From NCBI GenBank assembly GCA_032718475.1, contig JAUCBJ010007426.1, positions 62,001-126,000 on the forward strand: a stretch of 64,000 bases of DNA, read 5' to 3'. Shown piece after piece: positions 33,201 through 60,810 of this stretch. The position numbers and the translations under genes were made by a program. The notes under the pieces are model-generated. The model ran no database searches, was not told where the DNA came from, and saw only the letters and a list, made by a program, of their open reading frames with translations. This DNA comes from Nemertoderma westbladi (Eukaryota > Animalia > Xenacoelomorpha). Position 1 is the stretch's first letter. Each line of letters starts with the position of its first letter.

Positions 33201-36200
33201 TCTCGGTTGTCCTCTGCAGTGGTACGCACTACCGAACAGGCGTTGGAAGGGCTTGAGATTATCCCAAAGGCCTGGATGGTCATCCAGTACTCCACCGGTT
33301 TCTGGTTGAGGTCTCCTTCGGGCCACCACAGAAATCGTAGACTATCTCGATCCCTATCTAACACCTTGACTTGTAAGAACATGCCTTCTATATCGGAGGC
33401 GAAAGCAATCGAATATTGTCTCAATCTTAAAAGAATTCCCAACAAAGATTGAAGTAAGTTGGGTCCGGGTAACAATTCAGAGTTAAGGGATTGACCCATG
33501 TAAAGAGCGGAGCCATCAAACACTACTCTCACTTCATGTGGCTTACCGGGTTTAGGAATGTAATGGTGAGTTAAGTAATATGTTCTTTCAGTCACAGGTG
33601 TTTCTTCCGGTACTCTCTCCGCGTATCCCTTACTAATAAATTTCTCCAGCTGTGTTTGATACATTGCTTTAGCTGAAGAATTAGCCGTAAGGCGTCGATG
33701 GAGTTGCGCGATTCTTTTTTCCGCCAAGGGTCTGTTATTGATGAACTTCGGTTCTTTCTTGCGGAAAGGTAGACCGACTTCATACCTACCTTGATCTTTG
33801 AGGAAACGTGTAGTTGTCTCTTGGATCTGCTTGGCCCTTTCCTCTTCCACCGACAAGGCTTTATCGTAGGAATTGGGCTCTACCGCCTCTTGCGTAAAGA
33901 ATCGTACGGCATGTTCATCTCGAGTCTTGGCATTACAACGCTCAATGACGTCATTTAACTCGTCGTTATAAGCTTCTCGTTCGGTTGGATAAAGAAGTTG
34001 ACATAAGTTCACTTGGTTTTGCCAAGCCTCGTTTTCCTTAAGGAGGTCGATGGTATTCTCCTCATCAAAAAGCTGGTGAATGTCGTCGTTATCTGAGGAG
34101 TATGGGGTTCCCTTAGTTAAATTGTCTCCCTCACTAGTATCATCTTCCCATTCACTCACCTGGTAGACGCGCTCTTGCGGTAGTCTTTCTCTGAGTGTTC
34201 TACGGGAAGGGCCAGTAAAGTACCAACCTACTCTAGTTCTTACCGCATAGGTCTGTAGTGGCTGCGGTTGAGCAGGCCGTTTCTCTAATGTTTCCAGCGC
34301 CTCATGCGCGTTTTGGCCGATGAGTATTTGCACTCCAGGATAATCAGTCTGGAATCGAGGTATGTTAAGATGTTGGATGCTCTCATCCTCGTCCCAATTA
34401 TAAAGGTCTGCTTGAGTAGTAGCGAAGTTCTTTATAGCCACCATTTTCACTGACCTTATGCTATGTTCTCCTAGTTCGTCCTGGGGGGTGGACAACGCTC
34501 CTACATAATAATCCGCTGTTATTGTAGATTTCCAAACTTGCATAATGCCGGACATGTTGAGCTTAGTTTGGAACTTGGGTTGTCCAGCAAATATATCTTC
34601 GGCTAGCTCTTTGTCGATGAATGTTCCTGTACTACCGGAGTCAAGGAGGGCGTTCACTACATAACTCCTCTTAGGTCCGTGAACCCTTACTTGCACCACA
34701 GGAAACTCTCGGATCCCTACATTGGAAGATGGCTCTTTCCAAGACGGTTGTCGTTCAGAAGTGGTTAGAGTGAAGTCGCTGTCTGTATCCTTTTCATATG
34801 TGAGTGCTCGATACACTGCGGTATTTATCATGTAACAGGATTCGTTTTCGTCGGAGAACTCGTCTGTATAGAATCCTTCCATCTCAGATTGATCAGTGTC
34901 GTTCACATCACTGAATTGGACATGTAGCTCGGAATCACTTACCTGATTCGGACTATTTCGCTCGAATTCAGCGTGCAACAAGATATGATGTTTCGCACCA
35001 CACTTTGCACACCTTATGTCAGAGAAACAGGTACGCCGTTGGTGTCCTTGTCTGAGGCAATTATAACATAACCGCTTATCCCACATGACTTCGCGTCTCT
35101 CCGTTAATGACTTCTTCAGGAATTCATCACACATATTCAAATGGTGGGTCCCATCACACAGCGCACATTTCGGTTTGATGTTACTTACCTTATTTTGAGT
35201 CACATTGTGTACACTTGCCTTTTCTTCGGGCTTTCTCACCGGAATTCTCTTGGGAGACGTGGGAGGAGTTTTTCTTACCTGTTCTCTCCTGTCATTTGCT
35301 CGAGACTTGAATTTACTTACCTGATCTTTAGGCATTTTATTGACATAATAAGATCTCTCAGTGTCTTTCCCGCTATCTTCTCCTTGAGAAGTCTGGCTTT
35401 CGCCGTCGTCTGTATAACACACTGGTGTTACCTTTCTCCTAGAGACGGGTTTTTCACTTACCTTGTTTTCCGGTGTCTTCTCTCTGGACAGTTTCAGGAG
35501 CTGTAATTTCACTTCTCCATCTAGGAATGACATGAGATCAGCCATGGTAGGGTCTCGTCGTTGTTGTTCCATCATATATAACACTTTCTTATCCCAGCGT
35601 GTACCTACTCCACCCTTCGGTAAAGTAGAAGCCACTGCTCTAATAACCATAGCATTCTGATACTCCTGAGACTTACCTAGCCAATCTAATTGTCTACAGA
35701 TCTCCTGAATCTCATCGGAAAACTCGATAATTCCGCTGCTAATAAACTTTCGGGGCGCTACTAACTTTGCATACAAATACCCAGCGATGTTATTCCTATT
35801 ACCATACCTGATGTTTAGTGTATCCCAAACTTGTCTTAATCCGTCTGGATGTCCAATAAACTTCAACGCCATTAACTTGGGAGATCCTTCCAAGCACTCG
35901 ATGAGGTATCTAAGTTTTTCTCCATTAGATAGTACAGAGTTCTGTATGTTATCTTTGTAATATTCATTAAAAGGTAACCATTTCATCTCATCTCCATTGA
36001 ACTTGACGATCTCTCCCACCTTTACCGCTTGCCGGGCTTCGGTTCTAGCCATTTGACGCGTAAAACTTTCTTGGGCCATCGTGTTATTTAATATCGAGTT
36101 ATCGGTATATAAATTTCTCGGATTATGATCAGTTCTATAGGGAATGTCATTATCAACAGGTCTATAATTACCCTTAATAGGGTTCACTATAGGAGTTTCT

Positions 36201-36514
36201 ACTTCGCTAGCAGTATAGATGCGTGTAGGCTCCACACCTTGCGCATGCGATACTTCAGACCTAACAGGTTGACACATTGTTACAGAGGGTGGTGGTATAC
36301 CCCTTTGAGTATTTACTAATTTATCGCGTTCTAGCGCGATACTTTGCTGCACTTCTTGCAACTCAAGCCTACTTTCCCTTACTGTGCCCTTGAATTGCTG
36401 AACAGTCTCCTGCATCTGCCCGAGCAGGAGATCCATCCCCCGCTGTCTCTCGTCCACCCATTCGACCGCCGAAGCGGGAGTCGCCAACGTTGTAGCGGGC
36501 GGACGAGGGACCAC
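30272..36514 (-). CDS. pol: E2 Gag C-terminal half plus PR-RT-RH-IN polyprotein, uninterrupted (2080 aa)
   Basis: All BEL/Pao motifs are intact in one frame, showing that gag and pol are a single ORF in this family. Confidence 0.95.
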   Translation of the reverse strand: MVPRPPATTLATPASAVEWVDERQRGMDLLLGQMQETVQQFKGTVRESRLELQEVQQSIALERDKLVNTQRGIPPPSVTMCQPVRSEVSHAQGVEPTRIYTASEVETPIVNPIKGNYRPVDNDIPYRTDHNPRNLYTDNSILNNTMAQESFTRQMARTEARQAVKVGEIVKFNGDEMKWLPFNEYYKDNIQNSVLSNGEKLRYLIECLEGSPKLMALKFIGHPDGLRQVWDTLNIRYGNRNNIAGYLYAKLVAPRKFISSGIIEFSDEIQEICRQLDWLGKSQEYQNAMVIRAVASTLPKGGVGTRWDKKVLYMMEQQRRDPTMADLMSFLDGEVKLQLLKLSREKTPENKVSEKPVSRRKVTPVCYTDDGESQTSQGEDSGKDTERSYYVNKMPKDQVSKFKSRANDRREQVRKTPPTSPKRIPVRKPEEKASVHNVTQNKVSNIKPKCALCDGTHHLNMCDEFLKKSLTERREVMWDKRLCYNCLRQGHQRRTCFSDIRCAKCGAKHHILLHAEFERNSPNQVSDSELHVQFSDVNDTDQSEMEGFYTDEFSDENESCYMINTAVYRALTYEKDTDSDFTLTTSERQPSWKEPSSNVGIREFPVVQVRVHGPKRSYVVNALLDSGSTGTFIDKELAEDIFAGQPKFQTKLNMSGIMQVWKSTITADYYVGALSTPQDELGEHSIRSVKMVAIKNFATTQADLYNWDEDESIQHLNIPRFQTDYPGVQILIGQNAHEALETLEKRPAQPQPLQTYAVRTRVGWYFTGPSRRTLRERLPQERVYQVSEWEDDTSEGDNLTKGTPYSSDNDDIHQLFDEENTIDLLKENEAWQNQVNLCQLLYPTEREAYNDELNDVIERCNAKTRDEHAVRFFTQEAVEPNSYDKALSVEEERAKQIQETTTRFLKDQGRYEVGLPFRKKEPKFINNRPLAEKRIAQLHRRLTANSSAKAMYQTQLEKFISKGYAERVPEETPVTERTYYLTHHYIPKPGKPHEVRVVFDGSALYMGQSLNSELLPGPNLLQSLLGILLRLRQYSIAFASDIEGMFLQVKVLDRDRDSLRFLWWPEGDLNQKPVEYWMTIQAFGIISSPSNACSVVRTTAEDNREAFSKEVIDNIKRDIYMDDNLKSLPSVEEAIEVAKGTVECLKRGGFRLTKFTSNSREFLESIPAEDRGAKDLDLIKDDLPETNTLGLKWDTERDILFFQLKQRDNPVRTKRICLSILSTYFDPLGFISPVILIARSLVQQMWLENHSWDDPLKGELLKKWMKWEDSLPAIEDFIISRSYFGHVLPTYSYQLHVFGDASDMGIGIVAYLRVETPDGIKVALVTSKALINNKLKVPRAELKAALYATAIGRNVTEQIDYPLEKTVYWTDALLVLEYITNEVCQFSVFVTNRVAIILSRTTMDQWRHCPGTINPADIASRGATPKELVNTPEWLGGPDFLYREEEEWPPHLTTAEIRQAKGAEKVKPKTRASKSKLFKPAVDLSVLFTSGEDALDQKPTATTREVLEIRDKDWKSGIPDIAQGLSPLLQRAIRHYSSWNRLCKAVTYLKRCFHHRYSGTKTNSDDAPSTSARVHVVKDLPKYKISDRFLKEKISYQEHDEINKQMLRLLQCYEDSDKYFLLLRNPQMRLRDRFSSTMIDGLIRVGGRLTNAPLSFDTKFPILIRNLDIQIKMIVDVHSKLYHAGRERVLSEIRTRYYFYKPRKALNQVLRNCIPCRKAFSRPLTQREAELPRERVSFYEPPFTNTGVDLFGPIEVYRARTIVKRWCVIFVCMTCRAIHLDMVNDLSTNSFVLSLRRQIARFGTSNTMRSDKGTNFIGANNEIQAYVKDWNKRQVDDQLKITASSWTFNAADAPWWGGSWERLIRSVKTAFHFIVPCRAYLTDELLRTLMEEIAAYLNERPLMPVSSNPDSLEALTPAHFLLKKPVAMLPRSEITDGDEYCRRTWQLMQLLSRRFADHFEKHYLPTLQLRTKWFAQQENFSAGDMVLIVDPDLPRKRWQTGRIIETYISSDGLVRSVELVVMRRNFKKPGIVFETQQLNRPVGRLCLLERDRELSGNYGRQETLPTTTSLIQPTSRDSPT

Positions 36515-38375
36515 GCACGGGCGACAAATCAGGAATATTTCGCTCGGGGTCCAGGACCTGAACTGTCTCCTGGGCAGTTCTACGGGGCACAGGTAGCTTA
36601 GTGCTATGCAGAGGGAATTTAGAGGTAGTTTCAGGGAGCACAGGTGTGTCTATCACCGAAGGGGTGATTTCAAGAACAGGCCTAATTATTTCAGGCTCAT
36701 CTACTATAGTAGGGAGTCTTTCTATTTTAATTATTTGGTCTGTGGGCTCTGTACTACCTAAGTTGGTGTTATTTAGTTGCCTTCTAACAGCTGGAGGCAA
36801 ATCAGGCAATTTCTGACGGTGGAATGTTCTTTTACGTCTGCTTAGACGAGATCTATTTCCTTTGCCTTCAGTATCGGTGGTATCGCCTTCCTCAGATGAT
36901 GTGTATCCCTGTCTTTTGGGAGTAGATCGATTCATCATCTGCATATTACTAGCTGTTAACTGTTTATTTATGCAGTCTTGATTCTCCTGAATGTTTTCCA
37001 ATTCTAATTGGGTGGTTTCTTCGGAAGCTCTCCGTTCTGCTTCTGCTACTGCCTCGGCCGCTGTTACAGCCGCCTTTCTTTCTGCTTCGGCCGCTGCCGC
37101 TGCCACTTTTCTTTCGGCTTCTGCCTCTGCCTCTGCCGCTGCCACTGCCGCTTTTCTTTCTGCTTCTGCCGCTGCCACTGCTGCTGCCACTGCCGCTGTC
37201 TTTCTGTCTTCTATACGTTTTTTCTTTACTTGTTCTTCTTGGACTCGTGTCAGGCGGAGTTGTTCATCAAATTTAGCCTGATTCGCAGCCCTCATTTCCA
37301 CATCGATGGCATCCAACACAAGCTTGGTTCCTTCACTATTAGGGCTAAGTCCCTCTAACCTTCTCCTCAACTCGTCATCACCTAAAAAACGTTGATAGTC
37401 TGACAGATAGATGTCAATGGCATCCCTCTTATGCGGTTTCTCTGCCGTCGCTTCACTTTCCACTTGGGAAAAAGTAGCGTCTGTTGATTCTCCATGGGTT
37501 GAGCGCTCCTCCAGCTGAGCTTTCCACTGAGCTGTTCCTTGAACCTGGAGACTCACCCTTTGAAACCAGGTCTTTACGGCAACTTGCAACGACGTGTCTT
37601 GCCTTCGTTTAGAAGCCTCCTCAAAGGCTGATAAGATTAGCCTGATTCGTAGAATTCTTTCTCTCACTTGATAAAGCAGTTGTCCCTGCTCTTGAGGTCC
37701 TTGTGGTTGGTGAAACAGTTGTCCTTTTACTCGCTCCATAGAGCTGAAGAATCCCTGTGCGTATCCGGCTGCGGACCTCTTCCACACAGCGGGATCTATG
37801 GTTTCTTTGGCTACTCCCATCTGGTGTATGTCTTCCCAGGCAGCTTCTGATAAATCAAACGGGAGTCCGGGTCCGGGGAAGTTCCATTGCGACTCGACCA
37901 TGGACTTCAGTTCTTCCCTTGTGTATCCAGCATAACTATCTCTAGTTGAACGCTGGCTTCTCGCCCAATCGATCTGGTGTTCTTCCACAGCGATCAATAA
38001 CCTAGTGAGTACGGCTGCAGGAAGGATGAGAAGGGGATCTGAATAAGCCTCATCCGTCATCCTTGCTCCGCGTTCGGGTGTCAGTTCTACCGTATCTACA
38101 CTACTGGAGCTGTCGGGCCGTTGAGAAGTAAGTTCTTGGCTCGCGGGTTGTTGCTGTTCCGCTGCTTCTTGGTCCCGTTTGACCTGAGCTCGAGTGCCTA
38201 TGATAGACCTACGATGTTGGACCAGCCTAGGTTCTTTTATTACTACTGGAGGGATGACTTTCCTCACAGTGGGAGGTGAACTGAACTTACGACTAGAAGG
38301 TTCTACGCCTCTATCTGAGTCGCAGATAGTTACATCTAATAAACTGTCTGACAGGTTCTGCTTAGTATCAGACAT
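36515..38375 (-). pseudogene. gag: E2 Gag N-terminal half, separated by one small-insertion frameshift near 36515
   Basis: MSDTKQNLSDS... is homologous to E1 4013 onward. E2 reads CCCGTGCGTGGTCCCT vs E1 CCCGTCGTCCCA (4 extra nt). Confidence 0.9.
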
Positions 38376-40598
38376 GTTTATGCGTACAGTTGAGTGTCTA
38401 CTGCTGTATTACAGTCTGAGCAAGTCTAGTAACTCAGTATTAACTGCTAGCCTAGTAATTAATTACCGGTACTGCTACTCAGGGTAGCGTGATATATAAT
38501 ATATTAGAATACCGGTATGCTTATAGTATATATAACTATTATTACAGACTAGGTTTATCACAGAATACCGGTATAATTTTAGCACAAATATATATAAATA
38601 TATAATAGGCCTATCGGGAATACCGGTATACAGCTTACAGTTTTGTAGTATATAATTATAATTCTGGAATAGAATTAATTACAAGTACCGGTATAGTTTC
38701 AGCCTAAATTTATAGAAATAAATATAATAAGCCTATCGTAAATACCGGTATATCAATTATTTTAAATAATTGAATTTCTGAATTTTAGGGTTACTTTGTT
38801 ACTTTACTTACTTTATTACCATTATTTGAGCAGTAATCCAACTGATATTGAGACCTAATGGTTGTATGGTAGGCCTACTATTTATAAATCGCTAGATTTG
38901 ATTTATAATATATATATACCCGTTTTAATGGGTTTTGTCAATGTTTGAAATAAATGTTATTATTTCTGGGGAGTAATCACTACACAAAGCGGTGCGCTTT
39001 CAGTGAAGTGTTACTTATAGGACACTAAAACAAATAATGCTAATTTACCTAAGTTACTTAATACTACAAATTACGTACAATTCGGGTGAGATTACAATCT
39101 CTAAATAAACACAAAATTTACAAAAAAAAACACAAAATACGAATTTTCAGGGTAATTTTACAAGAAGTCTACAAACCAGCCTAACAAAGGGTTAGAAATC
39201 TGGTTATTACAACGGACAGGGTACTGCGGTATTTGAAAATAATACGTAGTAGTAAATACACTGCATTGTCCAGATAGGAAAATACCACCGCCTGACGACC
39301 TATAGCCGTATCGCTACAGGTACTACGTTATGTATCACGGAGTGTTCCTACCTAGAAGTTAATAGAGCTAATCGAACGTGCCTATCAACCACTTTACAAC
39401 ACAAATATAATGCCTACACTAATTACTTTCGGAAAGCACTGTACACTAAACCCTAAATTAGGTACGAGTACTTGTATAACATATAATCTGTAGTTAAATA
39501 TACTTGAACAGCTAAAAGAACCACGGCATCTGCTGGAGTGACCGATGCACAAAATCACCAGTCTTTACCTACGCCAAGCAGCCCGTGTAGTACCGGGGTT
39601 AATTTAACTATAGCGGTATGTATAACAAACACAATTATTGTAGGAACAAACTTGGGGAATGAATGTTGCGAATAATCGCATAAACTCTGAATAATAAATA
39701 TTACGCTACGCGTACAAACCACTCAAACAAAATGCAGACCGAATACTGACAGACTACTATCAAGCCTAAATAAACTACAGGACATGCAGACTCCGAAATG
39801 ATTAGGTAGTATGCGTTCTAACCCAGTAGTACGACTTATTCTTTAGTTGGAGGTTTACCTTACAGCATTCGCTGCCCCTACTTCCTAACCGTTCTTTATC
39901 GGACAGGCTCTACACACACTGCAATCCGTTCAGACCTAATAACAGCCAGACAACTATCCAGCCTACAAATTATCTAAATAAATATTATACGCTACCCGTA
40001 CAGACTTACACAAACAAAGTACAGACTCAACGATGGCAGACTACTCTCAAGCCTAAATAAACTACAGGACATGCAGACTCCGAAATGATTAGGTAGTATG
40101 CGTTCTAACCCAGTAGTACGACTTATTCTTTAGTTGGGGGTTTACCTTACAGCATTCGCTGCCCCTACTTCCTAAATGTTCTTTATCGGACAGGTGATCA
40201 GACTTAACAGCAATCAGACAACAGTTCAACCTACAAATTGTCTGCACAATCTGATCAGGCTTACACGCCTTCTGCTCAATACTGGCCTACAAATAAATAA
40301 AACTGACAGAAATAAGTAAGCTCCAAAAGAAACAAGGGGTGTACAGTCCCTAATTTCTTAAACAGCCCACCGGTATACAACAATCAAATCGAATAATACT
40401 AATGTACTTATACGGGAAGTACCGGTTAGGACAGTTAGGCCTACGGACCTACAGAAGTACCGGTTCTGTGCAGTTGGACCTACGGACCTACGGCAGTACC
40501 GGTTCTGGCGGTTGGGCCTACTGACCTACTGAAGTACCGTTCAGGTTTACCGGTTGACCGGTACTTTCAACTTTATTGCTTACTGCAATAAAGAAGCA

Positions 40599-40609
40599 AT
40601 ATCCGTTAT
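40599..40609 (-). promoter_or_regulatory. E2 non-tRNA PBS ATAACGGATAT
   Basis: Abuts the 5' LTR. Reverse complement of the LTR motif ATATCCGTTAT (41339-41349, minus strand). Confidence 0.78.
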
Positions 40610-41766
40610 TGTTCGCGCTTTCAGACCTTTGGCAGTTTAACCCGCCAAATTATGATGTCTTCTAGATAATAAATCACTTTTAGCCTATGACAAGTATTTA
40701 ATTCACTACACTAGTCGAAACCAATCTGTGCGCGATCATTCACCCGCTGGATATACCCGGGAGATTGGGTTCGACGGCTTAATCTTATTGCTATGTAAGC
40801 CTAATGTATTATTCGACTGACAGTATTATATAATCTCTGACAATATTATTCACCTTCGGGGAATATTAACAGTTCCTTTAGGACGTGGCGCTCTATCTAT
40901 ACAAACAGAGTTATGACTTAAACTACTCACAACGATATGGCTTAGTTATAATTCACATATATGGCGCATTCTTTAGGAAATGCTTCGTTATCAGGCTCAC
41001 TCATACACAATGCTGCACAATACTGCACACTGATCTGCCGATCTTCACTGATTTTAGTTATATATAAAAGGAACACGGACCGACTCATGTAGGGTCTATC
41101 AAATAACATTAGATTCACTTCAAACCACTTTAACATAAGTCACAATCGTTATATGTAACCTTTCTCTCTTACCTTCGGTATATCAAGAATATTGGGTTTC
41201 GGGGTTATTTATCGTTATTCCAAATATAATAATTCATCAACCATATTATGAAGAACTGACAGTAAATAGCAGTATAACAATATAAAAGTATGCACAGTGA
41301 TTCAGTGTGGATTGTTTGGTTTGTTTTGCAATGGTTTGATAACGGATATATGCCCTTTATAATTAAGCCTACTAGTGTTAGACTAAAACAGAAAAGCACA
41401 AAATATTTACAAGCCGTTCTCTCCTGGCTCAGGACAGAAAGACCAACAACACTGAAAACTGATAAGAATAACCTTATTTACAAAGGCTTCCACCCAACGC
41501 AGAGAAAGAGCATACAGATAGGAAAATTCAGTTCAGTAGATCTGTGATAGGTCGAAATCAAAATCAACTCAAATCCTATTGGGAGATACTTTCCCAAGCT
41601 GGTTGGACAATCAAACGTAGCCCAGATCCCTTCGCACAGCAAATCAGCCAATCAGCCGGTAGCTTGCACTATTCGAGTTATAGATCCCCTTTTAGAGTAT
41701 TCTAGCGCTTGGGGGGGAACTGTTTAGCAAGGCAAACGAATCAGTTATCCCACAAAAGCTTTTACA
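40610..41766 (-). repeat. E2 5' LTR
   Basis: TGTAAAAGCTTTTGTGG...GCGCGAACA on the minus strand. Confidence 0.97.
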
Positions 41767-41771: not shown

Positions 41772-44700
41772 TATGCATTTGCTTGAGTTTGTGAAGCCTC
41801 GTGAGTACCATCCTCTTGTTGTCAGGCAACGGTAACTTCGGCTGTTTCCATACCATGCCTATGGTGTACCATCCCTCGTCGCATCTCATCGACTCCTTCA
41901 CACTCTGTACTGCCTGTTTATCCTCTACCAAGGTTCCGACCCCGGTCTCTTTCAGTCCTTAAAAATCCTGCCTCAACAGTCTCTTCAGCTGCTCCTCTGC
42001 TCCTTCATCTTCCATCTAACTCATGGTTCCCGCAAACATGCACCCCGATGTCTCCGACATCCTAAATGGAATTTTGGTTTTGATTGGGCCGCTTAGCGTC
42101 CATCCGAATGGTGTGAGAATTGCCATCGGATCACGCTGTCTGTCTTCCCCGAAGATCGTCTGTACTCTCTCGTGGGCCATCGGACAGTCCATCCCCACTA
42201 TGATGGATACCTTCCGGACGTCCACTTCCGGTATCGAGAAATCAATCTCGTCCAGGAATCTGTATTGCTCGACATCGATGTTAGTTGGTCGCCTGGCGTT
42301 TATGTTGATCGATTCTATTACCTGGATGGGGTCGATGGTCGCCCCATAGTCACATCCCGGTGCTATTGCTGATATTTCGCACCTTCCCGTCCTCATCTCC
42401 AGGACCTCATCCTTGCTGGAGATAGTAGTTACCGCCATCCTACTTGGCCTCGTCTGTAACCCCATCCACTCGGCTACCCAATTCTCCACCATTGTGAAGG
42501 CTGCTCCGCTGTCGACCAGCATCAAGGTGGTTACTGATCGTCCGCCCTCTCCTATTACCCTCACTGGTACCACCCCCAGTAGTACCGTTCCCCTTTTCTT
42601 CGCTCCTATGGTGCTTGTCGCCATTGTTCGACCTTTGCCTTGACCGAATCTTACTGGTGTCTCCTTACACTCTTCAACCTTGTGTCCTCCTACCATGCAT
42701 TGGTGAAAAACTCCATTCTTATCCGCATAGGCTTTCCGATCTTGTTCAGGTAACGCCTGCCAATGCTTACAGTCCATGGTCTTATGGGTTCCGTCTTTAT
42801 GCAACTGACATTTGTATTCTGGGTTGTAACGTTCCCTATATAGCCCAACACGTATTGCGCATAGGTTCACGTCTACCGGTTTAGTGTTTTGGTTATTTGG
42901 GTTTGGCCTACTGGGTGTGTTGGGATTATATTTGTTCATGTTGTTATTTTGTCCCTGTTCGTGCCACAGTCTGGCCCCACTCCCAGCTATCTGTGGACTT
43001 GCAGTCCCCTGTGTCGCCGCGTATGGTAGGGATTATCTTAATTTTGGCAACGCATTTGCCGCATTATGCTCTGGTTTCGGCCTGTTGTATACGGCCCTCG
43101 GCGCCTTCCCCAGACTATCTTCGCTGTAGACTGGGTCCGTGATCAACTCTGCTTGGTAGTTGAGGAAGTTCGACATTTCCTCTAGGCCCGGTTCCACACC
43201 TTTCTTCTCCCGGGTGGAGAAGGCGATCTTTCTCCATATATTGCGTAGCCAGATCGGCAGTGCCTGCGCTATCGTGGTGATATTATTAGATGCGTTGAGT
43301 TTGTATGGCGCGTCTAGCGTTTTCAGCACGATCAACGCCTTTTCGACCTTATTCGCGAAGGTATTTATGCTAACAGGGTTATCCTGTAGGCCACCCGATG
43401 TTATCCCCCTTAAGGTCTGCCGGATAATCTTGACAGGGTGTCCGTATTCCCTGTCTAGGGCCCGCCATGTAGTCGTGAAGCCACCCTCGATGCCCTGATA
43501 CTGCCTCACGATGTCATACGCTGGGCCTCCTGTGTATACCTGTAGATATTTTAGGCACTCCGCCTGCATCAGGTTCTTAGTTAATATCTCGTTGCTGTAC
43601 ATGCTTCGGAATTGCAGGTATTCTTCCGGTCTGCTTCTGTCGAATTTAAATGACTCTACTGGTGGTAATTCGATTCTGGTCTTGAGCGCATCGATAAGTG
43701 TTGCCATTCCCATTGCCTGTGCTTCCAATGGGTTCGAGGGATGCTGTACAGATTCTCCTGTTGGGTGCGGACCGCCCGTCGGGCCTGTTGACTTTCTTTG
43801 CGTCGGATATACCATTGGGGGTAATGGCCCCCTCCATATCTCCGTGTCGCAAGATCTGTTCTCGTCCAGGGGGTTCGATGTTCTTATTCCCGCTTGAGTG
43901 TATTGTTGATATTGTAATGAGGGAATGTCACCCTACCCCCCCCCCCCCCCCACCAGTATTATGTTTGGTACTGGGGTTGATGTTAATATATTGGGGCCCA
44001 TACACCTATCTGCAATAACTCTTCCCTCCCCTGGATATATGTTATGTCCCTGCATATTATAGTCATACTGCTGTGCTGGTACCGGTATAGGCCTTCCCAC
44101 TTCTTGCCTGCCTACTGGTATATACGCCGCGACTTCCGGATCTAATCCCGTCGTTCGCGATACCCTATCGCCTACACTATCTCTCCCAGCATGGCCTATA
44201 GTATGTGCAGTAAGGCCTACAGTATGTCCTGCAGTCTGTATATGTCCTTCCGGACCAAAGTTTAACCTTCTCGAATAATCCAAGAAGTCCTCCCCACGAC
44301 TACCAGCGATCGGCAGCTATATCCCGTCGGGAAGTTTCTCTTCAATCCCCTCTCCTGTTCTCGTCCCCGTACCGGTACATCCTGTACCCCTCTCCCGGCG
44401 CGGCGTATGATATATCTCGCCAGGCTGCGTCTTTCCGGGGCGACGGCAATCTCCCGGAGTTCGACCCCACTGACTCTCCAACTCCATCTCTACTACCGAC
44501 GGCTCGCTATCCGTCCTCGCTCTCCGGTCGCTTGTAGCGACGCTTCTTCTATTCTCTTCTCTTCTTCTCTCTTCACTGTAGCGTCCCCGCTCATGAGATC
44601 TCTCTTCGACCTCCCGGTTAAACTCCACTGTTCTTCTTCCGTCTTCCGACTGGGCTCGATGTCTCGTCACTCGCCCGCTCACGACGCCAGCCTCTCTCTC

Positions 44701-46312
44701 TCTAGCCGGTTGGACGCTGCTGGGGATATTCGTAATCCCCCTACTATTCTCCATCACCGGGTGCTGCGGTTCACCTAACTCGCCCCGCGCATTATCCGCC
44801 GACGCCTGTGGGACATTCTCTGCCCCCCCCCCCTCTCGCCACTAATCTCCTGTGGTGGGGCGCTCGTAGCCCCCCCCCCCCCCCCCCACTCACCACCTAT
44901 TGCTTCACTATCTCCTACTTCGCTTCTACGCCCCTCTCTAGTCGACGCACTATCCCTACTGCGGCTGGGTCTATTCACCCCCGCCTCTCCCTTTACCACT
45001 GCGTGGCCTTGCAGGCTCCTGTCGGGTTGACTCACCCCCGCTACTCCCTGCGTACTAACTACGTGGCCTTGCAGGCTCTCGCTGGTCGGACCACCTATGT
45101 CTGCTGCGTTCATATTAATAGCACCATTATCAACAATATTATTGCCTAAATTATTTAAATTATTTGAGTTATTCTGTTCGGAATTCGGATTATTATTATT
45201 ATTATTATTATTGCATAAGCCCCCTTAACCGGGCATGCATATCATCCCGCATACGATTTCCCGCCCTCTCTCTCTCTCTATCCTCCCGTAAACTCTGGTT
45301 CGCTAATTCTGCCTCCCTCGCCCCCCGCTCTTTGCGCTCGTTCTCTATTCTCGTCTCTCTCTCTTCACGCTCTCTACAGTTTCTCGCCACCCTCTCGGCC
45401 CTCTCTTTACACTCTCTCGCTAACTCTCTCTCTTTCTCTAATAACGCGGCTCCCTCCTCCAGTTATCTCTCCAACTCTTTCTGATCCAGCGCCACCATGT
45501 CTAGTTGACAGGCCAGATCTATCTCTAACACCCTTCTTGTTTTTGCGGAGGATGTAGCGGACTTATCGGTCGCGATGGACTCCCGTCGCCTCTCTGTCCT
45601 ACTAACTTTCCCCCGCTTTCTGGGGTTCTCACTAACCGACGAGACCGAATCCTCGGGGTTAACCTCGGGTTCGCCCTCGTGCGGATCCGCCCAACCCACT
45701 AAACTTAATTCCCCTGGCATCCACTAAATACGGCCCTACATACACTACTTCAGGCTCCATAACCCTGGATCGCCACAGTTCGAATAGTTCGGTGGCGACC
45801 CCCCTCGCTCTCTCACTCGCCAGTTCTCCCTGCCCAAAACGGACCAGATACCGAAAATGTTTGTTCGACTCACCTAGCCGTTGCTGTAACTTGGGCTGGT
45901 TTACCTTCTCTCCCTCTCTGGCCTCCTATAGCAGTTTCTTCGTGGCATTGTAGGCCCATTGTAGCCGATCGCTGGTCCCGACGTCCTCTTCGCCAACATC
46001 TCCTCCTCCTCTCCTGGTTCGGCGTTGTACCAGCGGCCCCACCGTCGCCGTTCCGGTGGGCCGTCCATCGCCCTCGGCCTGTGGCTGGCCGGCGACTTCG
46101 GTACTCCAACCGCCGTCGTTCATCGATTCGTCCCTCTCTCGTGGTTGATGGCCGCCCTCCGCTTGGGGTACCGGATCGTCCCTCGTCGGCGAATCCGGCA
46201 TCGCAGGTCGATACCATCTCATCGCGGCCTCGCGGATCGTTTGGTTGGTGTCGTCCGGGGTCCGCGGCGGCGTCCTCTCTCCCTCTGGATCTCGGGGCTC
46301 TCTATCACTCAT
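41772..46312 (-). pseudogene. gag: E4 gag-protease, multiply frameshifted
   Basis: Starts MSDREPRD at 46312. Contains an FKFDRSRPEEYLQF capsid-like region, a CQLHKDGTHKTMDC knuckle and an LMLVDSGA protease motif. Several breaks fall at poly-G runs. Confidence 0.88.
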
Positions 46313-46357: not shown

Positions 46358-46368
46358 TATTGTCTTAC
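46358..46368 (-). promoter_or_regulatory. E4 non-tRNA PBS GTAAGACAATA
   Basis: Abuts the 5' LTR. Reverse complement of the LTR motif TATTGTCTTAC (46557-46567, minus strand). Confidence 0.78.
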
Positions 46369-46959
46369 TGTGACGGGATCAAGGGATCCCGACCGGGTTA
46401 TGTTGTACGCGTCACAGCAGGCCGATGGGAAAATGTTTGAGTTCGATGTTCCTTCGTTCCGATATATATAATAATATGCGTAGTGATAGCACAGTAAAAT
46501 GATAGGACCGGTAATAGCGATATAATATGACAGCATATAACAGCACTGTGATGACAGTAAGACAATAATGCCGGTCTGCACTGAAACTGACAATTTGGTA
46601 ACTGAATAATAAATCAGTATGTTTGGGATAATATATGTGTGATTACTTCACCCCTACATTACTTTGGCCTCCTACCTAGTGGATGCTCTCCTTCGCCCCT
46701 ATTGGCTAATAACCTACTTCACGCCTTTGCACTCTCTGGGAGTGTTTCCCCCATGTTGCTATCCCCTGCTAGCTGTCTCCCCTCCGAGGTGGTTTGACCT
46801 CTAACCTCCCTTTGTGTGTGGCTTCGGGGTTTGTACTGTCCCCCATGTTGGTTGTGATACGAGATTAGTTACTGCTAGTCTCGTATCTCCAACATATTGC
46901 TGAAAATGCCACTATCCACATTTTATGAGGGTAATGAGGCGGAATTGAATCCGCTTACA
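46369..46959 (-). repeat. E4 5' LTR (591 bp)
   Basis: TGTAAGCGG...CCCGTCACA on the minus strand. Confidence 0.95.
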
Positions 46960-50541: not shown

Positions 50542-51731
50542 TGTAAAAGCTTTTGTGGGATAACTGATACGTTTGCCTTTGCTGGCCAGTTCCCCCCCAG
50601 TCGCTAGAATACTCTCAAAGGGATTTATAACTAAAATAGTGCAAGCTACCAGCTTATTGGCTGATGTGCTGTACGGAGATATCTGGGCTCAGTTTAATCG
50701 GCCAACTAGCTTAGAGAGGTTGCCTTAGCCTTGCTGTTCGTGTCGGCCAATAGAATTTGCGTAGGCGTTGATTTCGACCTATCCCAGCGCTACTGAACTG
50801 AATTTCCTATCTCTATGCTCATCCTCTGTGTTGAACGGGGCTTCGTGGAATAAGGGTTTTTGGTATACTCGTATAGTGGCAGTAGTCATATGATTTTATA
50901 TGATTCTGTTGTTGTGTTCCCATTTTCGCCATAACACCGGCTTTTTGGGAAGAACTCTAGTAAAACTGCTTAAATTATCGAAAGTATAAACTGTTATCTA
51001 ACTTAAATCAATCTAATCAATCAACCTACCTATTAATCATATTGTTTGTACTGTTATTTACCGTCAGTTATTAATTGTATCTATTTGTTGATGGAAATAT
51101 TGCTCTTTGGAGAATACTGATAAATCACCCAAATTTCCCAATTTTCTTGATACACTACAGGTTAGAGAGACAGGCTATATATAACAATTGCGATTTATAT
51201 TAATGTGGTGTGTATTGAATCTAATGTTATTTAGCAGACCCTACATGAGTCAATTACTGCTCTCTTTATGTGTGATCAAATATACTGACGGTCGGCAGAA
51301 TAGTGTGCATGATTGTGATTGGTAACAAAGCATTTCCTAAAGAATGCGCTTTATACTTTAATCATAAGCAGTATCGTTGCGTTTAGTATAAGTCCTAGTT
51401 CTGTTTAAATAGATAGAGCGCCACGTCCTAAAGGAACTGTTAATATTTCCCGAAAGCCAATAATATCTGTCAGAAATTAATTATTAACGATCTATCGAAT
51501 AATACAGTAAGTTTACACTGCAACCTTACACTGCAATAATAAAATTTAAGCATCCGAATTCAGCCTCCCGGGTGTAGATCCATCGGGTGAATGATCGCGC
51601 ATGGGCTGACTTCGGCTAATGTTTTGTGTATTAGCATAAAATATTGTCGTATGCTAAAGGTGTTTTAATTAACTAAAAGACATATAAATTTTGGCAGGTT
51701 AAACTGCTAAAGGTCTTCAAAAGCGCGAACA
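50542..51731 (+). repeat. E3 5' LTR (1190 bp)
   Basis: TGTAAAAGC...GCGCGAACA, homologous to the E1 and E2 LTRs. Confidence 0.95.
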
Positions 51732-51744
51732 GTAACAGTTTATA
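51732..51744 (+). promoter_or_regulatory. E3 non-tRNA PBS GTAACAGTTTATA
   Basis: Complementary to the LTR motif TATAAACTGTTAT (50985-50997), with 12 Watson-Crick pairs and a terminal G:U. Confidence 0.75.
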
Positions 51745-53898
51745 ATCTTATTGCAGTAGGCAATAAGGTTGCAAAATACCGTAGTAACCGGTATTTCTGT
51801 AGGTCGGTAGGCCCAACTTTCCTAACCGGTACTGCTGTATAAGTACATTAGTATTATTCGATCTTGATTATTGTATACCGGTAGGTCTCGATATTAAATC
51901 GGGGACGCCTGGTTTTTATTGGGATTATACTTAGGTCTATTTCTGTCAGTTTTATTTACTAGTAGGCTAATATTGAGCAGAAGGCGTGTGACCCTGCTCA
52001 GATTGTTCAGATAATTGTAGGCTGAGCTGCTGTCTGACTGTGTTGAGTTTGGAGAGATTACGGCGTGTGTAGAGTTTGTCTGATCAAGTGCCGTTAGTAA
52101 GTTGGGGCAGCCATATGCGGTAAGGTCAATCCCCTCTTAAAGAATAAGTCGTACTACCGTGTTAGAACGCATACTAACTAACAGTTTCAGAGTCTGCATA
52201 TACTGTAGTTTATTTAGGCTTGATCGTAGTCTGCCAGTGTTTTAGTCTGTGTTTGTTTGTGTGGTCTGTTCAGGTACCGTAATAGTTATTACTCAAATAT
52301 TTTGTAGGCTAGATTGTTGTCTAGCTATTCTTAGGCCTGAAGGGATTGCTGCGTGTGTAGAGTTGGTCTGATAAAGTGCCGTTAGTAAGTTGGGGCAGCC
52401 ATATGCGGTAAGGTCAATCCCCTCTTAAAGAGTAAGTCGTACTACCGTGTTAGAACGCATACTAACTAACAGTTTCAGAATCTGCACATACTGTAGTTTG
52501 TTTAGGCTTGATAGTAGTCTGCCAGCGTTTGGTTTGTATTTTTGTTTGAGTATTCTGTACGGGTAGCGTAATATTTATTATTCAGAGTTTATGCGATTAT
52601 TCGCAACATTCATGTCCCCAAGTTTATTCCTACAGTAATTGTGTTTGTTACACATACCGTTATAGTTAAATTAACCCCGGTACTACACGGGCTGCTTGGC
52701 GTAGGTAAAGACTGGTGACTTTGTGCTTCGGTCACTCCAGCAGATGCCGTGGTTCTTTTAACTGTTCAAGTATATTTAACTGCTGATTATTTGTTATACC
52801 AGTACTTGTACCTAATTTAGGGTTTAGTGTACAGTGCTTTCCGAAGTAATTAGTGTGTAGGCAGTATATTTGTGTTGTAAAGTGGTTGATAGGCACATTC
52901 GTTAGCTCTATTAACTTCTGGGTAGGAACAATCCGTGATACATAACGTAGTACCTATAGCGATACGGTTATAGGTCGTCAGGCGGTGGTATTTTCCTATC
53001 TGGACAACGCAGTGTATTTACTACTACTTATTATTTTCAAATACCGTAGTACCCTGTCCATTGTAATAACCAGAATTCTAACCCTTTGTTAGGCTGGTTT
53101 GTAGACTTCCTGTAAAATTACCCTAAAAAAAAATTCGTACGTAATATTTTCGTTGTGTTTAATTAGAGATTTAATCTCACCCGTATCGTAAGTAATTTGT
53201 AGTATTAAGTAACTTAGGTAAATTAGAATTATCTGTTTTAGTGTCCCCTAAATAGCACTTCACTGAGAGCGCACAGCTTCTGTGTAGTGACCCCCAGAAA
53301 TAATAACATTTATTTCAAATATTGACAAAACCCTTTTAAACGGGTATATATCTATTATAAATCAACTCAAACGATTATAAATAGTAGGCCTGCCATACAA
53401 CAACTAGGTCTCAATATCAGTTGGACTGCTGCTTAAATAACGGTAATAAAGTAAGTTAAAGTAACCAAGTAACCCTAAAATATTCAGAAATTCAATTATT
53501 CTAAAATAATTGACATACCGGTATTTACCATAGGCTTATTATATTTATTTCTATAAATTTGAGCTGAAATCATACCGGTATTCTGTAATTAATTCTAGTA
53601 ATAATTATACTTATATATACTATAAGTGTCAGCTGTATACCGGTATTCACGATAGGCCTATTATATATTTATATATATTTGTGCTAAAATTATATACCGG
53701 TACTCTGTGACAAATCTAGCCTGTAATAATACTTATATATATACTATAAGCATACCGGTATTCTAATATATTATATATATATCACGCTACACTGAGTAGC
53801 AGTATCGGTAATTAATTGTTAGGCTAACGGTGATACTGAATTGCTAGACTTACTTTGACTGTATTTATAGCCGTAGGCATTCAACTGTGTAAACAAAC

Positions 53899-56800
53899 AT
53901 GTCAGACGCAACCCAATCACTGTCAGATAGTCTCTTAGAAAGTGTTAGAATGAGTATTAGACTTAGACAGCGTATTAAAAGGATCTGTGACCAAGATCAA
54001 AGTATAGAACATCCCAGATCCAAGTCTAAGTCACCTACTATTGTAAGAAAGGCCACCCCTACAGTAGTAGTGTCAGACCCTAGGCTAGTAGAACAGCGTA
54101 GGTCTATCATCGGCACTTGCGCCCAAGTCAAGCGGGATCAAGAAGCAGCTGTCAAACCGCAGCAACATCCTAGCCAAGAACCTAGTTCTCAGCGTCCCGA
54201 TAGCTCCAGTAGTTCGGATACTGCTGAGCGGACACCCGAACGCGGAGCGAAGATGGCGGATACGGTTTATGATGAGCGGCCAACCTATGAAGAATCAGCC
54301 GACGCCACTTCTTCTCAAGTGGAAAGCGAAGTGGAAAGCGAATTAACGGCCGCAGAGAAGCTGCGAACTAGAGACGCCATTGACATATATCTGTCAGACT
54401 ATCAGCGATTCATAGGAGACGAAGAGTTGAGGAGACGACTGTCTGGACTTCGCCCTAATAGTGAAGGAACCAAGCTTGTGTTGGACGCAATCGATGCGGA
54501 AATGTTAGCTGCAGAACAAGCTAAATGTGATGAAAAACTCCGCCTCGTTAGAGTCCAAGAAGAACAAATAAAGAAAAAACAGATAGAGAACCGAAAGGCA
54601 GCAGCAGTAAAGGCGGCAGAAGCAGAAGCAGCAAAGGCGGCGGCAGAAGTAGAAGCAGAAAGAAAGGCAGCGGATGTAGAAGCAAAAGGAAAGGCAGCGG
54701 TAGCAGAAGCAGAAAGAAAGGCGGCAGCGGCAATGGCAAAGGCAGTGGCAGAAGCAGAACGGAGAGCGTCTGAGGAGACTGCCCAACTGGAGTTGGAAAA
54801 TCTGCAAGAGACGCAAGACTACATAAATAAACATCTAACTGCTAGTCGAATGCAGAGGATGAGACGATCTACTCCAAAACGCCAGGGATACACATCATCG
54901 GAGGAAAGCGAAACCACCGATCCTGAAGGCGGAGGAAATAGATCTCGTCTAAGCAGGCGTAGAAAAACATCTCACCGTCATAAACTGCCTGATTTGCCCC
55001 CAGCTGTCAGAAGACAACTAGCTAGCACAGACTTAGGTAGTACAGAACCTACAGCCCAAAGTATTAAGGTTCAAAGACTCCCTACAATAGTTGATGAGCC
55101 TGAGATAATTAGGCCTGTCGTTCCCAAAATCACTTCTGTGTTAGAGACCCCTGTACTTCCAGAGCTTAACTCTAAATTCCCTTTACATAGTACTACACTG
55201 CCTGTACCCGGTGGAGCAGTCCAAGAGAATATCCCTGTCCAGATAGCAGAGAGAGAAATCAAAAATTTGTCTCCCGTCGTCCCGCGTCAGCCCGCTACTA
55301 TGTTGGCGACTCCCGCTTCGGCGGTTAAGTGGGTGGAAGAGGGACGGCGGGGGATGAATCTCCTGCTAGGACAGATGCAGGAGACTGTCCACCAACTTAA
55401 GGGAACAGTGAGGGAAGGTAGAGCAGAGTTGCAAGAAGTGCAGCAAAGTATCGCGCTAGAACGCGACAAATTAGTCAATATACAAAAGGGCATACCAATA
55501 CCCCCTGTAACATTGTGTCAACCTGTTAGGTCTGAAGTATTACATGCGCAAGGTGTGGAGCCTACACGCATCTATACTGCTAGTGAAGTTGAAACTCCTA
55601 TAGCAAACCCTATTAAGGGTGATTATAGACCTGTTATTAATGATATTCCCTATAGACCTGATAATGATCCGAGAAATTTATATACCGATAATTCGATATT
55701 AAATAACACGATGGCCCAAGAAAGCTTCACGCGTCAGATGGCTAGAACAGAAGCCCGCCAAGCGGTCAAAGTGGGAGAGATCGTCAAATTCAATGGAGAT
55801 GAGATGAAATGGTTACCTTTCAACGAATATTACAAAGATAGCATACAGAACTCTGTACTATCTAACGGAGAGAAACTTAGATTCCTCATCAAGTGCTTGG
55901 AAGGACCTCCCAAGTTAATGGCGTTAAAGTTTATCGGACATCCAGAAGGATTAAGACAAGTTTGGGATACATTAAACATCAGGTATGGTAACAAGGATAA
56001 CATAGCTAAGTATTTATATGCAAAATTAGTAGCCCCCCGACACTTCCTTAGTAGCGGGATTATAGAGTTTTCCGATGAAATTCAAGAGATCTGTAGACAA
56101 CTGGACTGGTTAGGTAAGTCGCATGAATATCAGAGTTCCATGGTTATTGGAGCCGTAGTCTCTACTTTACCAAAGGGTGGAGTATGTACACGCTGGGACA
56201 AGAAAGTGTTGTACATGAATGAACAACAACGACGAAGCCCTACCATGGCTGATCTCATGTCTTTCTTAAATGGTGAAGTCAAACTACAACTCATCAAGCA
56301 GTCCAGAGAGAAAACATCGGAAAATAAGGTAAGTGAGAAACCCACTTCTAGGAGAAGAGTAACACCAGTGTGTTACACTGACGACGGCGAAAGCCAAGCT
56401 TCCCAAGAAGAGGACAGCGGGAAAGACACAGACCGATCTTATTATGTTGACAAGACCTCAAAGGACGTAAGTAAATACAAGGCTCGAAACAACGATAGGA
56501 GAGAACAGGTTGCCAAGACCCCTCCTCAGTCTCCTAAGAGAATTCACGGAAGAGAGCCCGAAGAAAGAACGAGAGTGCATAACGTTACCCAAGGTAAAGT
56601 GAGTAACATCAAACCAAAATGTGCGCTGTGCGACGGGCCCCACCGTTTGAGTGCGTGTGCTGAATTTCTAAAGAAATCCCCTGTAGACAGACGTACAGTC
56701 CTGTGGAATAAGCGGTTATGCTATAATTGCCTCAGATCAGGACACCAACGGCGAACCTGTTACTCCGACGTAAAGTGTGCAAAGTGTGGCGCGAAACATC

Positions 56801-57918
56801 ACATCTTGTTACACAGTGAGTTCGAACGAGACAACCCGAGTCAGGTAAGTGAGCCCAAATCACATGTCCAATTCAGTGATGTGAACGACACTGACCAAAG
56901 TTCTGAGTGGGAAGGATTCTATACAGACGAATTCTCCGATGCCAACGAATCCTGTTATCTAATAAATATCGCAGTGTATCGAGCACTTACGTACGAAAAA
57001 GACACCGACACGGAGTTCCCCCCAACCACCTTTGACAGACAACCATCTTGGAAAGCTCCAACCTCCCACGTAGGAATACGAGAATTTCCTGTGGTACAGG
57101 TAAGAGTTCACGGTCTTAACAAAAGCTACATAGTGAACGCCCTCCTTGACTCCGGCAGCACAGGAACATTCATCGATCAAGAACTAGCCGAAGATATCTT
57201 TGCTGGACAACCCAAGTTCCGGACTAAATTGAATATGTCAGGAATTATGCAGGTTTGGAAATCTACCCTAACGGCAGATTACTATATAGGTGCGTTGTCC
57301 ACCCCACAGGATAAATTAGGAGAACAAAGTATAAGGTCAGTAAAAATGGTAGCAATAAAGAACTTCGCTACTACCCAAGTAGCACCTTATAACTGGGACG
57401 AGGACGAGAGCATCCAACATCTTGAGATACCTCGATTCCAAACCGATTATCCTGGAGTACAAATCCTCATCGGCCAAAACGCGCACGAGGCGCTCGAGAC
57501 ATTAGAGAAACGGCCTGCTCAACCGCAGCCATTACAAACTTATGCGGTAAGAACTAGAGTAGGTTGGTACTTTACTGGCCCTTCCCGCAGAACTCTTGAA
57601 GAAAGATTGCCACAAGACCGGCTACTTCAAGTAAAGGATTGGGAAGAGGAGAGCAGTGAAGTGGACGAACCCACTGAGGGAACACCATACTCCTCAGATA
57701 ATGACGATATTAACTCCAATGTAGATCAATGGAGACATCGCCCCGAGATGATTAATCCAGCCGACATCGCTTCCAGAGGAGCAACTCCTCAAGAACGGAT
57801 AGATACTCCCGGCTGGTTAAGTGGACCCGACTCCCTAAGTAAAGAAGAAGATGAATGGCCTCCTCATCTTACCACGGCGGAGCGTAGACAGGCCAAGGGA
57901 GCGGAGGAAGTAACATGA
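53899..57918 (+). CDS. gag: E3 Gag-protease ORF (1339 aa) lacking RT, RNase H and integrase
   Basis: Near-identical to E1 Gag and PR. In-frame deletions at ~54265 and ~57715, and integrase removed at ~57915. Confidence 0.9.
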   Translation: MSDATQSLSDSLLESVRMSIRLRQRIKRICDQDQSIEHPRSKSKSPTIVRKATPTVVVSDPRLVEQRRSIIGTCAQVKRDQEAAVKPQQHPSQEPSSQRPDSSSSSDTAERTPERGAKMADTVYDERPTYEESADATSSQVESEVESELTAAEKLRTRDAIDIYLSDYQRFIGDEELRRRLSGLRPNSEGTKLVLDAIDAEMLAAEQAKCDEKLRLVRVQEEQIKKKQIENRKAAAVKAAEAEAAKAAAEVEAERKAADVEAKGKAAVAEAERKAAAAMAKAVAEAERRASEETAQLELENLQETQDYINKHLTASRMQRMRRSTPKRQGYTSSEESETTDPEGGGNRSRLSRRRKTSHRHKLPDLPPAVRRQLASTDLGSTEPTAQSIKVQRLPTIVDEPEIIRPVVPKITSVLETPVLPELNSKFPLHSTTLPVPGGAVQENIPVQIAEREIKNLSPVVPRQPATMLATPASAVKWVEEGRRGMNLLLGQMQETVHQLKGTVREGRAELQEVQQSIALERDKLVNIQKGIPIPPVTLCQPVRSEVLHAQGVEPTRIYTASEVETPIANPIKGDYRPVINDIPYRPDNDPRNLYTDNSILNNTMAQESFTRQMARTEARQAVKVGEIVKFNGDEMKWLPFNEYYKDSIQNSVLSNGEKLRFLIKCLEGPPKLMALKFIGHPEGLRQVWDTLNIRYGNKDNIAKYLYAKLVAPRHFLSSGIIEFSDEIQEICRQLDWLGKSHEYQSSMVIGAVVSTLPKGGVCTRWDKKVLYMNEQQRRSPTMADLMSFLNGEVKLQLIKQSREKTSENKVSEKPTSRRRVTPVCYTDDGESQASQEEDSGKDTDRSYYVDKTSKDVSKYKARNNDRREQVAKTPPQSPKRIHGREPEERTRVHNVTQGKVSNIKPKCALCDGPHRLSACAEFLKKSPVDRRTVLWNKRLCYNCLRSGHQRRTCYSDVKCAKCGAKHHILLHSEFERDNPSQVSEPKSHVQFSDVNDTDQSSEWEGFYTDEFSDANESCYLINIAVYRALTYEKDTDTEFPPTTFDRQPSWKAPTSHVGIREFPVVQVRVHGLNKSYIVNALLDSGSTGTFIDQELAEDIFAGQPKFRTKLNMSGIMQVWKSTLTADYYIGALSTPQDKLGEQSIRSVKMVAIKNFATTQVAPYNWDEDESIQHLEIPRFQTDYPGVQILIGQNAHEALETLEKRPAQPQPLQTYAVRTRVGWYFTGPSRRTLEERLPQDRLLQVKDWEEESSEVDEPTEGTPYSSDNDDINSNVDQWRHRPEMINPADIASRGATPQERIDTPGWLSGPDSLSKEEDEWPPHLTTAERRQAKGAEEVT

Positions 57919-59678: not shown

Positions 59679-60168
59679 ATGACGGAATTGATAGAAGATG
59701 ACCTTGGTATTAGAGAGCGATATACTCTACCTTTACAAGCGTTTGTGGATAGCTTGATACGCGGTGAAGCCGATCCGACTATTACGGAGGACGATGGTCG
59801 TTATATCGAACCGCCGATGTCCCAAGAGCAACTTACGCGTGAATTGGACTATCGAAAATTAACCGCTCGCTATACGCATCGTAATGGTACGTATATGGAC
59901 TTCTTAACTACCGGCCATCCTATCGATTTACATGATACGGACGATGTAGACACCGAAAGGGAAATGGTTCTATTTAAATATCATACCCAGCGGCGTCGTA
60001 ACGATAAACCGAGAATAGATCACGAAAATTCTATTCGTAACAGACTGGGAAGACGAACCAATATGTCTAGAATCTGAGGAGATTCAGCCTATCGCGCTCG
60101 GAACAGCGACAACGATTACATCCTAGAATGGTATCAAAGTCCACAGTGTCTCACTGCGTACAATTATC
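59679..60168 (+). pseudogene. E3 accessory ORF remnant
   Basis: The MTELIEDD... N-terminus is fused by deletion at ~60047 to sequence matching E1 15569-15690. Confidence 0.8.
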
Positions 60169-60176
60169 GCCTCTTT

Positions 60177-60810
60177 TATTGCTCTTTGGAGAATACTGAT
60201 AAATCACCCAAATTTCCCAATTTTCTTGATACACTACAGGTTAGAGAGACAGGCTATATATAACAATTGCGATTTATATTAATGTGGTGTGTATTGAATC
60301 TAATGTTATTTAGCAGACCCTACATGAGTCAATTACTGCTCTCTTTATGTGTGATCAAATATACTGACGGTCGGCAGAATAGTGTGCATGATTGTGATTG
60401 GTAACAAAGCATTTCCTAAAGAATGCGCTTTATACTTTAATCATAAGCAGTATCGTTGCGTTTAGTATAAGTCCTAGTTCTGTTTAAATAGATAGAGCGC
60501 CACGTCCTAAAGGAACTGTTAATATTTCCCGAAAGCCAATAATATCTGTCAGAAATTAATTATTAACGATCTATCGAATAATACAGTAAGTTTACACTGC
60601 AACCTTACACTGCAATAATAAAATTTAAGCATCCGAATTCAGCCTCCCGGGTGTAGATCCATCGGGTGAATGATCGCGCATGGGCTGACTTCGGCTAATG
60701 TTTTGTGTATTAGCATAAAATATTGTCGTATGCTAAAGTGGTTTTAATTAACTAAAAGACATATAAAATTTGGCAGGTTAAACTGCTAAAGGTCTTCAAA
60801 AGCGCGAACA
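60177..60810 (+). repeat. 5'-truncated 3' LTR of E3 type
   Basis: Matches 51098-51731 (634 bp) with two small differences near its end. Confidence 0.93.

Follow-up and report, generated by a model that had tools for sequence, protein, structure and literature searches.

LTR retrotransposons of the Belpaoviridae are characterised by the ICTV as primed by host tRNA, through an 18-nt PBS for tRNA-Arg or tRNA-Gly, in elements of 4.2–10 kb (PMC8742986). A 64,000-nt stretch of Nemertoderma westbladi DNA (contig JAUCBJ010007426.1 of assembly GCA_032718475.1, positions 62,001–126,000, forward strand; hereafter the window) holds four LTR elements, E1, E2 and E3 of family A and E4 of family B, none of which shows TGG within the 30 nt that follow its LTR. 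What, then, primes their reverse transcription? The features that bear on this question, in window coordinates, are as follows.

626..17880, + strand: E1 (family A), TSD CACAC; motif 1010–1020, PBS 1779–1789.
25862..41766, − strand: E2 (family A), lying inside E4, TSD AACGG; motif 41349–41339, PBS 40609–40599.
50542..60810, + strand: E3 (family A), with an internal deletion and a truncated 3′ LTR; motif 50985–50997, PBS 51732–51744.
46959–20660, − strand: E4 (family B), TSD GTACT.
46369..46959, − strand: E4 5′ LTR, 591 bp, TGT...ACA.
46557..46567, − strand: predicted self-primer motif of E4, TATTGTCTTAC, LTR positions 393–403.
46358..46368, − strand: E4 PBS, GTAAGACAATA, adjoining the LTR end, without TGG over the initial 30 nt.
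46374..46391, − strand: predicted U5 terminal hairpin of E4, 7 bp with a 4-nt loop, from sequence and fold.
20660..21244, − strand: E4 3′ LTR, 585 bp; motif retained at 20858–20848, the next base being C, not T.
21245..21258, − strand: polypurine tract of E4, 14 G, immediately adjacent to the 3′ LTR.
42016..46312, − strand: fragmented gag–protease region of E4, with DUF1759 and an aspartyl protease; the first ATG lies at 46312.
22700..25827, − strand: E4 RT–RNase H–integrase region, with several broken frames.
24844–25827 (left end approximate), − strand: E4 RT piece with YVDD.

By their Pao-type gag and pol domains, in gag-PR-RT-RH-IN order, E1–E4 belong to BEL/Pao (Belpaoviridae). Pieces of E4 match PF05380, PF03564, PF17921 and an aspartyl protease in Pfam, PF18701 is matched in E1 and E2, and PF05380 recurs on nearly all of 120 homologues of the E4 RT piece, among the matches listed. 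The structural marks of the family (TG..CA LTRs, PPT and 5-bp TSD) are present as well. Two things depart from the ICTV description: with no TGG in 30 nt the 18-nt tRNA PBS is missing from all four elements, whose membership by protein stands, and E1 and E2, at 16–17 kb, exceed the stated size range. The two LTRs differ at 6/1153 positions in E1, 3/1157 in E2 and 3/634 in E3 (shared part), compared with 15/581 aligned bases plus gaps in E4, which is the oldest of the four, its coding region decayed into pieces. In the part of E3 at 53893–60810, most of RT is missing through an internal deletion, and the 3′ LTR (60177–60810) is truncated at its 5′ side, so that the motif is lost there.

The first-pass annotation of this DNA had described an exact pairing between the 11-mer that follows the E4 LTR and a stretch within that LTR, and the description is accurate: GTAAGACAATA (46368–46358) matches, base for base, the reverse complement of TATTGTCTTAC (46567–46557), which begins at position 393 of the LTR, across a loop of 188 nt (put earlier at about 190) and within a 5′ LTR measured at 591 bp (earlier 590). 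The pairing is antiparallel, the 3′ base of the motif lying opposite the base that immediately follows the LTR, as the orientation of a primer requires. The reported extension of this pairing into the terminal ACA, by 3 nt, holds for the 5′ LTR of E4 and is not a trait of the family, as it hangs on the single base 46556, which is C in the E4 3′ LTR and in most of the contig depth (1147/1178, 1377/1421 and 3040/3084) of runs X1, X2 and X3, respectively (DNA contigs under one organism label, aligned to the region). Dinucleotide shuffling of the LTR recreates a complement of the E4 11-mer in 3 of 20,000 cases, and of 2,969 other 11-mers from the interior of E4 not one has a complement in the LTR. 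E4 was also rightly set apart from the other elements by its LTR and pol: local alignment of its LTR with those of E1–E3 scores 44, 42 and 29 against shuffled maxima of 40, 44 and 35, roughly shuffle level, and its RT is 36% identical to that of E2.

Family A repeats the arrangement. Its motifs begin at positions 385 (E1), 418 (E2) and 444 (E3) of the LTR, as first reported, with loops of 729–758 nt; the shuffled LTRs match in 22, 16 and 9 of 20,000 cases, respectively, and the pairing in E3 consists of 12 Watson–Crick pairs plus a G·U at position 1. What E4 and family A have in common is the architecture; the notion that they carry the same 11-nt PBS fails on the letters, which differ across all four PBSs. 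Between E1 and E2 the PBS differs at two positions and the motif changes accordingly, and between family A members the LTR of one and the PBS of another pair over only 6–9 nt. Within family B, two motif changes, G>A at 46561 and A>T at 46564, are found in about half of the depth of runs X1–X3, and a PBS variant with both compensating changes occurs in one contig each of X1 and X2, which are different samples. The doubly changed motif pairs with this PBS variant at 10 of 11 positions, the two sites being unphased, as none of the contigs listed spans both. Two hairpins are conserved with changed pairs in E1–E3, one in U5 near the LTR end and one of 9–12 bp in the leader, directly 3′ of the PBS (approximately 1791–1815, 40595–40573 and 51746–51770). 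An intron that would shorten the family A loop was considered and rejected, as its supposed acceptor sits in the conserved U5 hairpin and E2 is without the AG.

Complementarity of this length might be put down to chance in AT-rich LTRs. The PBS of E1 is nearly palindromic, and without a fixed LTR end contiguous 11-mers do occur by chance, several such matches lying in coding DNA. Against this, all four window elements pair, contiguous cross pairs number 0 of 536, and the shuffled and internal 11-mer controls of E4 are as given above; with the junction tests described below, these results refute chance, to which we assign next to no probability.

A precedent for such an arrangement is found in Tf1 and Tf2 of Schizosaccharomyces pombe and in Tf1/sushi elements (Tj1, Tcn1), in which an 11-nt LTR stretch is complementary to a PBS just past the 5′ LTR and there is no tRNA site. 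In Tf1, the RNA's initial 11 bases pair, and RNase H cleaves between bases 11 and 12 (PMC7175516). Published work describes self-priming in Tf1 and in the Tf1/sushi group and predicts it in Tcn1 and in the TAR lineage of copia (PMC7175516, PMC4600332, PMC10085805, PMC5341516, PMC6317226, PMC3601003). The TAR prediction (Houba, Osr-1) was likewise made from LTR–PBS complementarity, of at least 10 nt and 0–5 nt past the LTR; in contrast to our elements, TAR is a plant copia lineage, and the accessible part of that paper mentions no intron-built primer (PMC6317226). Unlike Tf1/sushi, which are Ty3/gypsy chromoviruses, E1–E4 between them carry Pao-type Peptidase_A17, DUF1759 and DUF5641 and give no chromodomain match. 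The pairing, its antiparallel geometry and position, the way it is kept while its letters change, and the lack of TGG together make it probable, in our judgement, that E1–E4 prime reverse transcription as Tf1 does, with a piece of their own RNA replacing the tRNA. Transcription would begin at the motif or upstream of it, within the 5′ LTR, and the RNA would fold its 5′ part back onto the PBS; the RNA would be cut just 3′ of the helix, by the element's own RNase H if the analogy with Tf1 holds, and RT would extend the new 3′-OH through U5–R. Plus-strand synthesis would then recopy the primer into the PBS, keeping motif and PBS in step as both mutate.

Alternatively, the helix could be a selected RNA structure that serves packaging, dimerisation, translation control or PBS shielding, while a host RNA such as a half-tRNA acts as the primer; half-tRNA priming without TGG does exist in Ty1/copia (PMC6317226). 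This reading is improbable given that the PBS letters vary by family and track the element's own LTR rather than a fixed host RNA, that the helix is located where a primer must be, and that it is absent from the TGG-type relatives described below (0/4).

Predicted RNA folding bears unevenly on the Tf1-like helix. In E4 its mean pair probability is 0.95–0.99 in ten of 12 folded windows and 0.55 and 0.04 in the other two, values that have no shuffled baseline and come from folds that include the private 3-nt extension of the 5′ LTR. The corresponding probability is 0.01 in E3, and 0.96, 0.90, 0.42, 0.05 and 0.02 in five relatives folded in spliced form. Support for the helix from folding models extends to E4, E1 and E2, is missing in E3 and is clear in two of the five spliced relatives. 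The self-priming RNA of Tf1 forms a three-duplex pretzel structure (PMC10085805). Candidates for its two extra duplexes in E4, of 7 bp each, are matched by 29/100 and 12/100 shuffles and so do not rise above chance; E1–E3 have the U5 and leader hairpins described above.

Promoter-like words in E1–E4 are ambiguous as to where this RNA would begin. TATA-like runs lie downstream of the motif at +190 to +193 in E1 and E3 and at +97/+99 in E4; in E2, TATAAA lies 12 nt upstream; and E4 has TATATTA at −68 and TCAGT at −38 from the motif, positions fitting a transcription start upstream of it. The downstream runs, the mere 12 nt between TATAAA and motif in E2 and the long loop of family A would suit a motif located in U3, or a primer supplied in trans from the RNA 3′ end, a second packaged copy or a short LTR transcript. 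In the established LTR cycle the R repeat is required for strand transfer, and a cut at the 3′ copy would remove it. Two relatives introduced below (L041 and L028) have a predicted intron in both LTR copies, so that a spliced copy could not be the template of a new LTR, and the two upstream words of E4 count on the same side. We consider a U3 or trans-acting motif unlikely, and retain the Tf1-like reading, in which the primer derives from the 5′ part of the same RNA.

A metagenome scan for relatives yielded 69 loci, from the best 80 of 545 confirmed stretches, and a viral contig scan yielded none among 146 pattern matches. In nine of the loci the LTR end is fixed by two copies (in L020 it was set where the copies start diverging); three of these have TGG within 8 nt of the LTR and six do not. 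No contiguous complement longer than 8 nt was found in any of the nine, an absence that seemed to refute a clade-wide trait and was overturned by matches across predicted splice junctions. In five of the six non-TGG loci, the complement was seen by eye to appear once a GTAAG..YAG segment is removed from the LTR. When all donor–acceptor pairs were tested, under splice-site rules fixed after these five matches had been seen, all six non-TGG loci gave a junction match (L003, 15 nt; L011, L028 and L041, 12 nt; L020, 11 nt; L039, 10 nt), each with 0/300 shuffles, compared with none of the three TGG loci. Eleven further loci, whose LTR ends were inferred after the match had been seen, comprise six with a junction match, three with a contiguous one (L010, L014 and L042), one with a junction match under a looser acceptor filter only, and one TGG locus. 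The tally beyond E1–E4 stands at 20 loci: 12 junction (10–15 nt), three contiguous and four TGG without a self match, plus L016, which the strict acceptor filter missed and which has an 11-nt junction match with the looser one. This tally omits the near-duplicates L018, L021 and L034 and scores L007 as TGG from the contig head, and 45 of the 69 loci were uncallable, true misses among them being inseparable from missing LTRs. When LTRs were paired with the PBS of an unrelated element, junction matches of at least 10 nt occurred in 1/536 pairs and contiguous matches of at least 11 nt in 0/536.

The matches resemble primer sites in their placement. The helix begins 0–4 nt past the LTR, the same range as for the TGG sites, except in L042, where a contiguous 12-bp helix at offset 6 is extended by 3–4 pairs beyond a one-base bulge (95–110, 278–295). 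The spacer between PPT and LTR correlates weakly with the offset between LTR and helix (rho 0.57, p 0.028, with spacers called by eye); exact equality of the two was abandoned, as only 7 of 15 are equal. All nine introns inspected start with GTAAG and end with YAG, and in five of the nine intron-bearing LTRs a TATA-like box lies 36–171 nt upstream of the donor, so that the predicted primer would usually be longer than the 11 nt of Tf1. Unlike in Tf1, where the primer is the 5′ end of the RNA, the motif of these relatives follows the TATA box at that distance and in most spans a predicted splice junction. L041 and L028 retain the predicted intron in each of their two LTRs, which means that the 3′ copy must usually escape splicing; our guess is that it does so through a cap-proximal advantage of the 5′ copy. 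One locus, L068, carried a tRNA-type label in the first tree until a longer intron limit gave an 11-nt junction match; a separate match in it was discarded, being located in coding DNA.

The clade-wide trait suggested in the first-pass annotation is supported as a widespread one, in that a self-complementary PBS recurs in BEL/Pao relatives of other animals, while those TGG-type relatives that were tested have none. The contiguous, intron-free form is represented by E4, by family A and by a few relatives, and most of the relatives tested need a predicted intron removed before they pair. The scan suggested at the same time, for the reverse complement of the first 11 internal nt within the LTR, would miss most relatives, whose match begins 0–4 nt past the LTR end and lies across a predicted junction.

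Trees built from unlabelled loci and database proteins suggest how this distribution arose. In a quick RT–RH tree of 91 rows (15 short loci dropped), E1, E2, E4 and all self-type loci fall into one 64-row group (SH-aLRT 96) that excludes the TGG loci and insect elements. A more careful tree of 40 rows recovers a core of 14 self-type loci (100/99) and a TGG group (82/84), and leaves E4 (branch 2.09), E1/E2 and L011/L050 without firm placement; E1, E2 and E4 as one clade are neither shown nor rejected (p-AU 0.312). Self-type versus tRNA-type priming needs one change on the tree, so that the trait looks inherited, and the self-type PBS was likely passed down rather than independently invented. 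Contiguous versus spliced form needs four, and there look to have been several switches between intron-bearing and intron-free forms, in one direction or the other. One such switch is seen directly: L014 aligns with the joined exons of L016 across the junction, without the 168-nt intron, and the two are sister elements (100/99), with the intron absent and present at the same site by loss or gain. The earlier description of E4 as an independent replication can be kept in the statistical sense, for a separate case with an unrelated LTR and different letters, and is to be dropped in the sense of an independent origin, given the single change on the tree.

The PBS is recopied from the primer in each round of the LTR cycle, and complementarity to an exon–exon junction is therefore the trace expected of a spliced RNA primer; in the intron-bearing relatives, host splicing of the predicted LTR intron would build that primer. 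We lean, at somewhat better than even chances, towards a broader reading in which self-priming replaced tRNA priming in a large BEL/Pao lineage of aquatic animals. In its main form the host spliceosome would join two exons of the 5′ LTR into the primer, splicing thereby licensing reverse transcription, and E4, family A, L010, L014 and L042 would be intron-free versions that arose several times by fixation of a spliced LTR.

No report of self-priming or splice-built primers in BEL/Pao was found in the open literature; subscription journals and Repbase reports lie beyond that search, and a prior mention is possible. No PBS analysis came up in term look-ups of the main texts of the Sinbad paper, the BEL/Pao survey, the mollusc survey, the Daphnia paper and the Atlas virus paper. 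If confirmed, BEL/Pao would be the third LTR superfamily with self-priming, across many animals. Self-primed elements would be free of host tRNA, so that tRNA-fragment control at the PBS would presumably not apply to them, and annotation that relies on the PBS would mis-score them. A primer built by splicing, if true, would couple the opening step of reverse transcription with host splicing, for which we found no description. The LTR–PBS pairs offer specific predictions of RNA and cDNA ends.

Several further features accompany the elements in the window. E1 and E2 have extra ORFs between pol and the 3′ LTR (E1, 14868–16649, + strand, 593 aa; E2, 27794–28825, − strand, 343 aa), which contain Cys/His clusters, have no Pfam match at E up to 1 and lie outside the E1–E2 DNA alignment. 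Tandem repeats occur in the 3′ region of E4 (74-nt unit, 22036–22416), in the family A leader (288-nt unit, 2190–2722) and beside the 3′ LTR of E3 (31-nt unit, 60811–61090), and a 75-bp piece of a family A LTR end is found at 61594–61668, 858 bp past E3. An Rfam search of 40000–52500 gave no match, and ARAGORN found no tRNA gene in the window. The insertion site of E4 is a host repeat (20467–20659 and 46960–47000) with an inverted copy nearby (48458–48623) and many matching contigs; close to it are a MITE-like palindromic element (47218–47690) composed of 13-nt and 55–56-nt units and an ORF of 441 aa (48895–50220, + strand) with no Pfam match above cut-off. A C2H2 zinc-finger gene with 84-nt repeats lies at 62553–63725 on the − strand.
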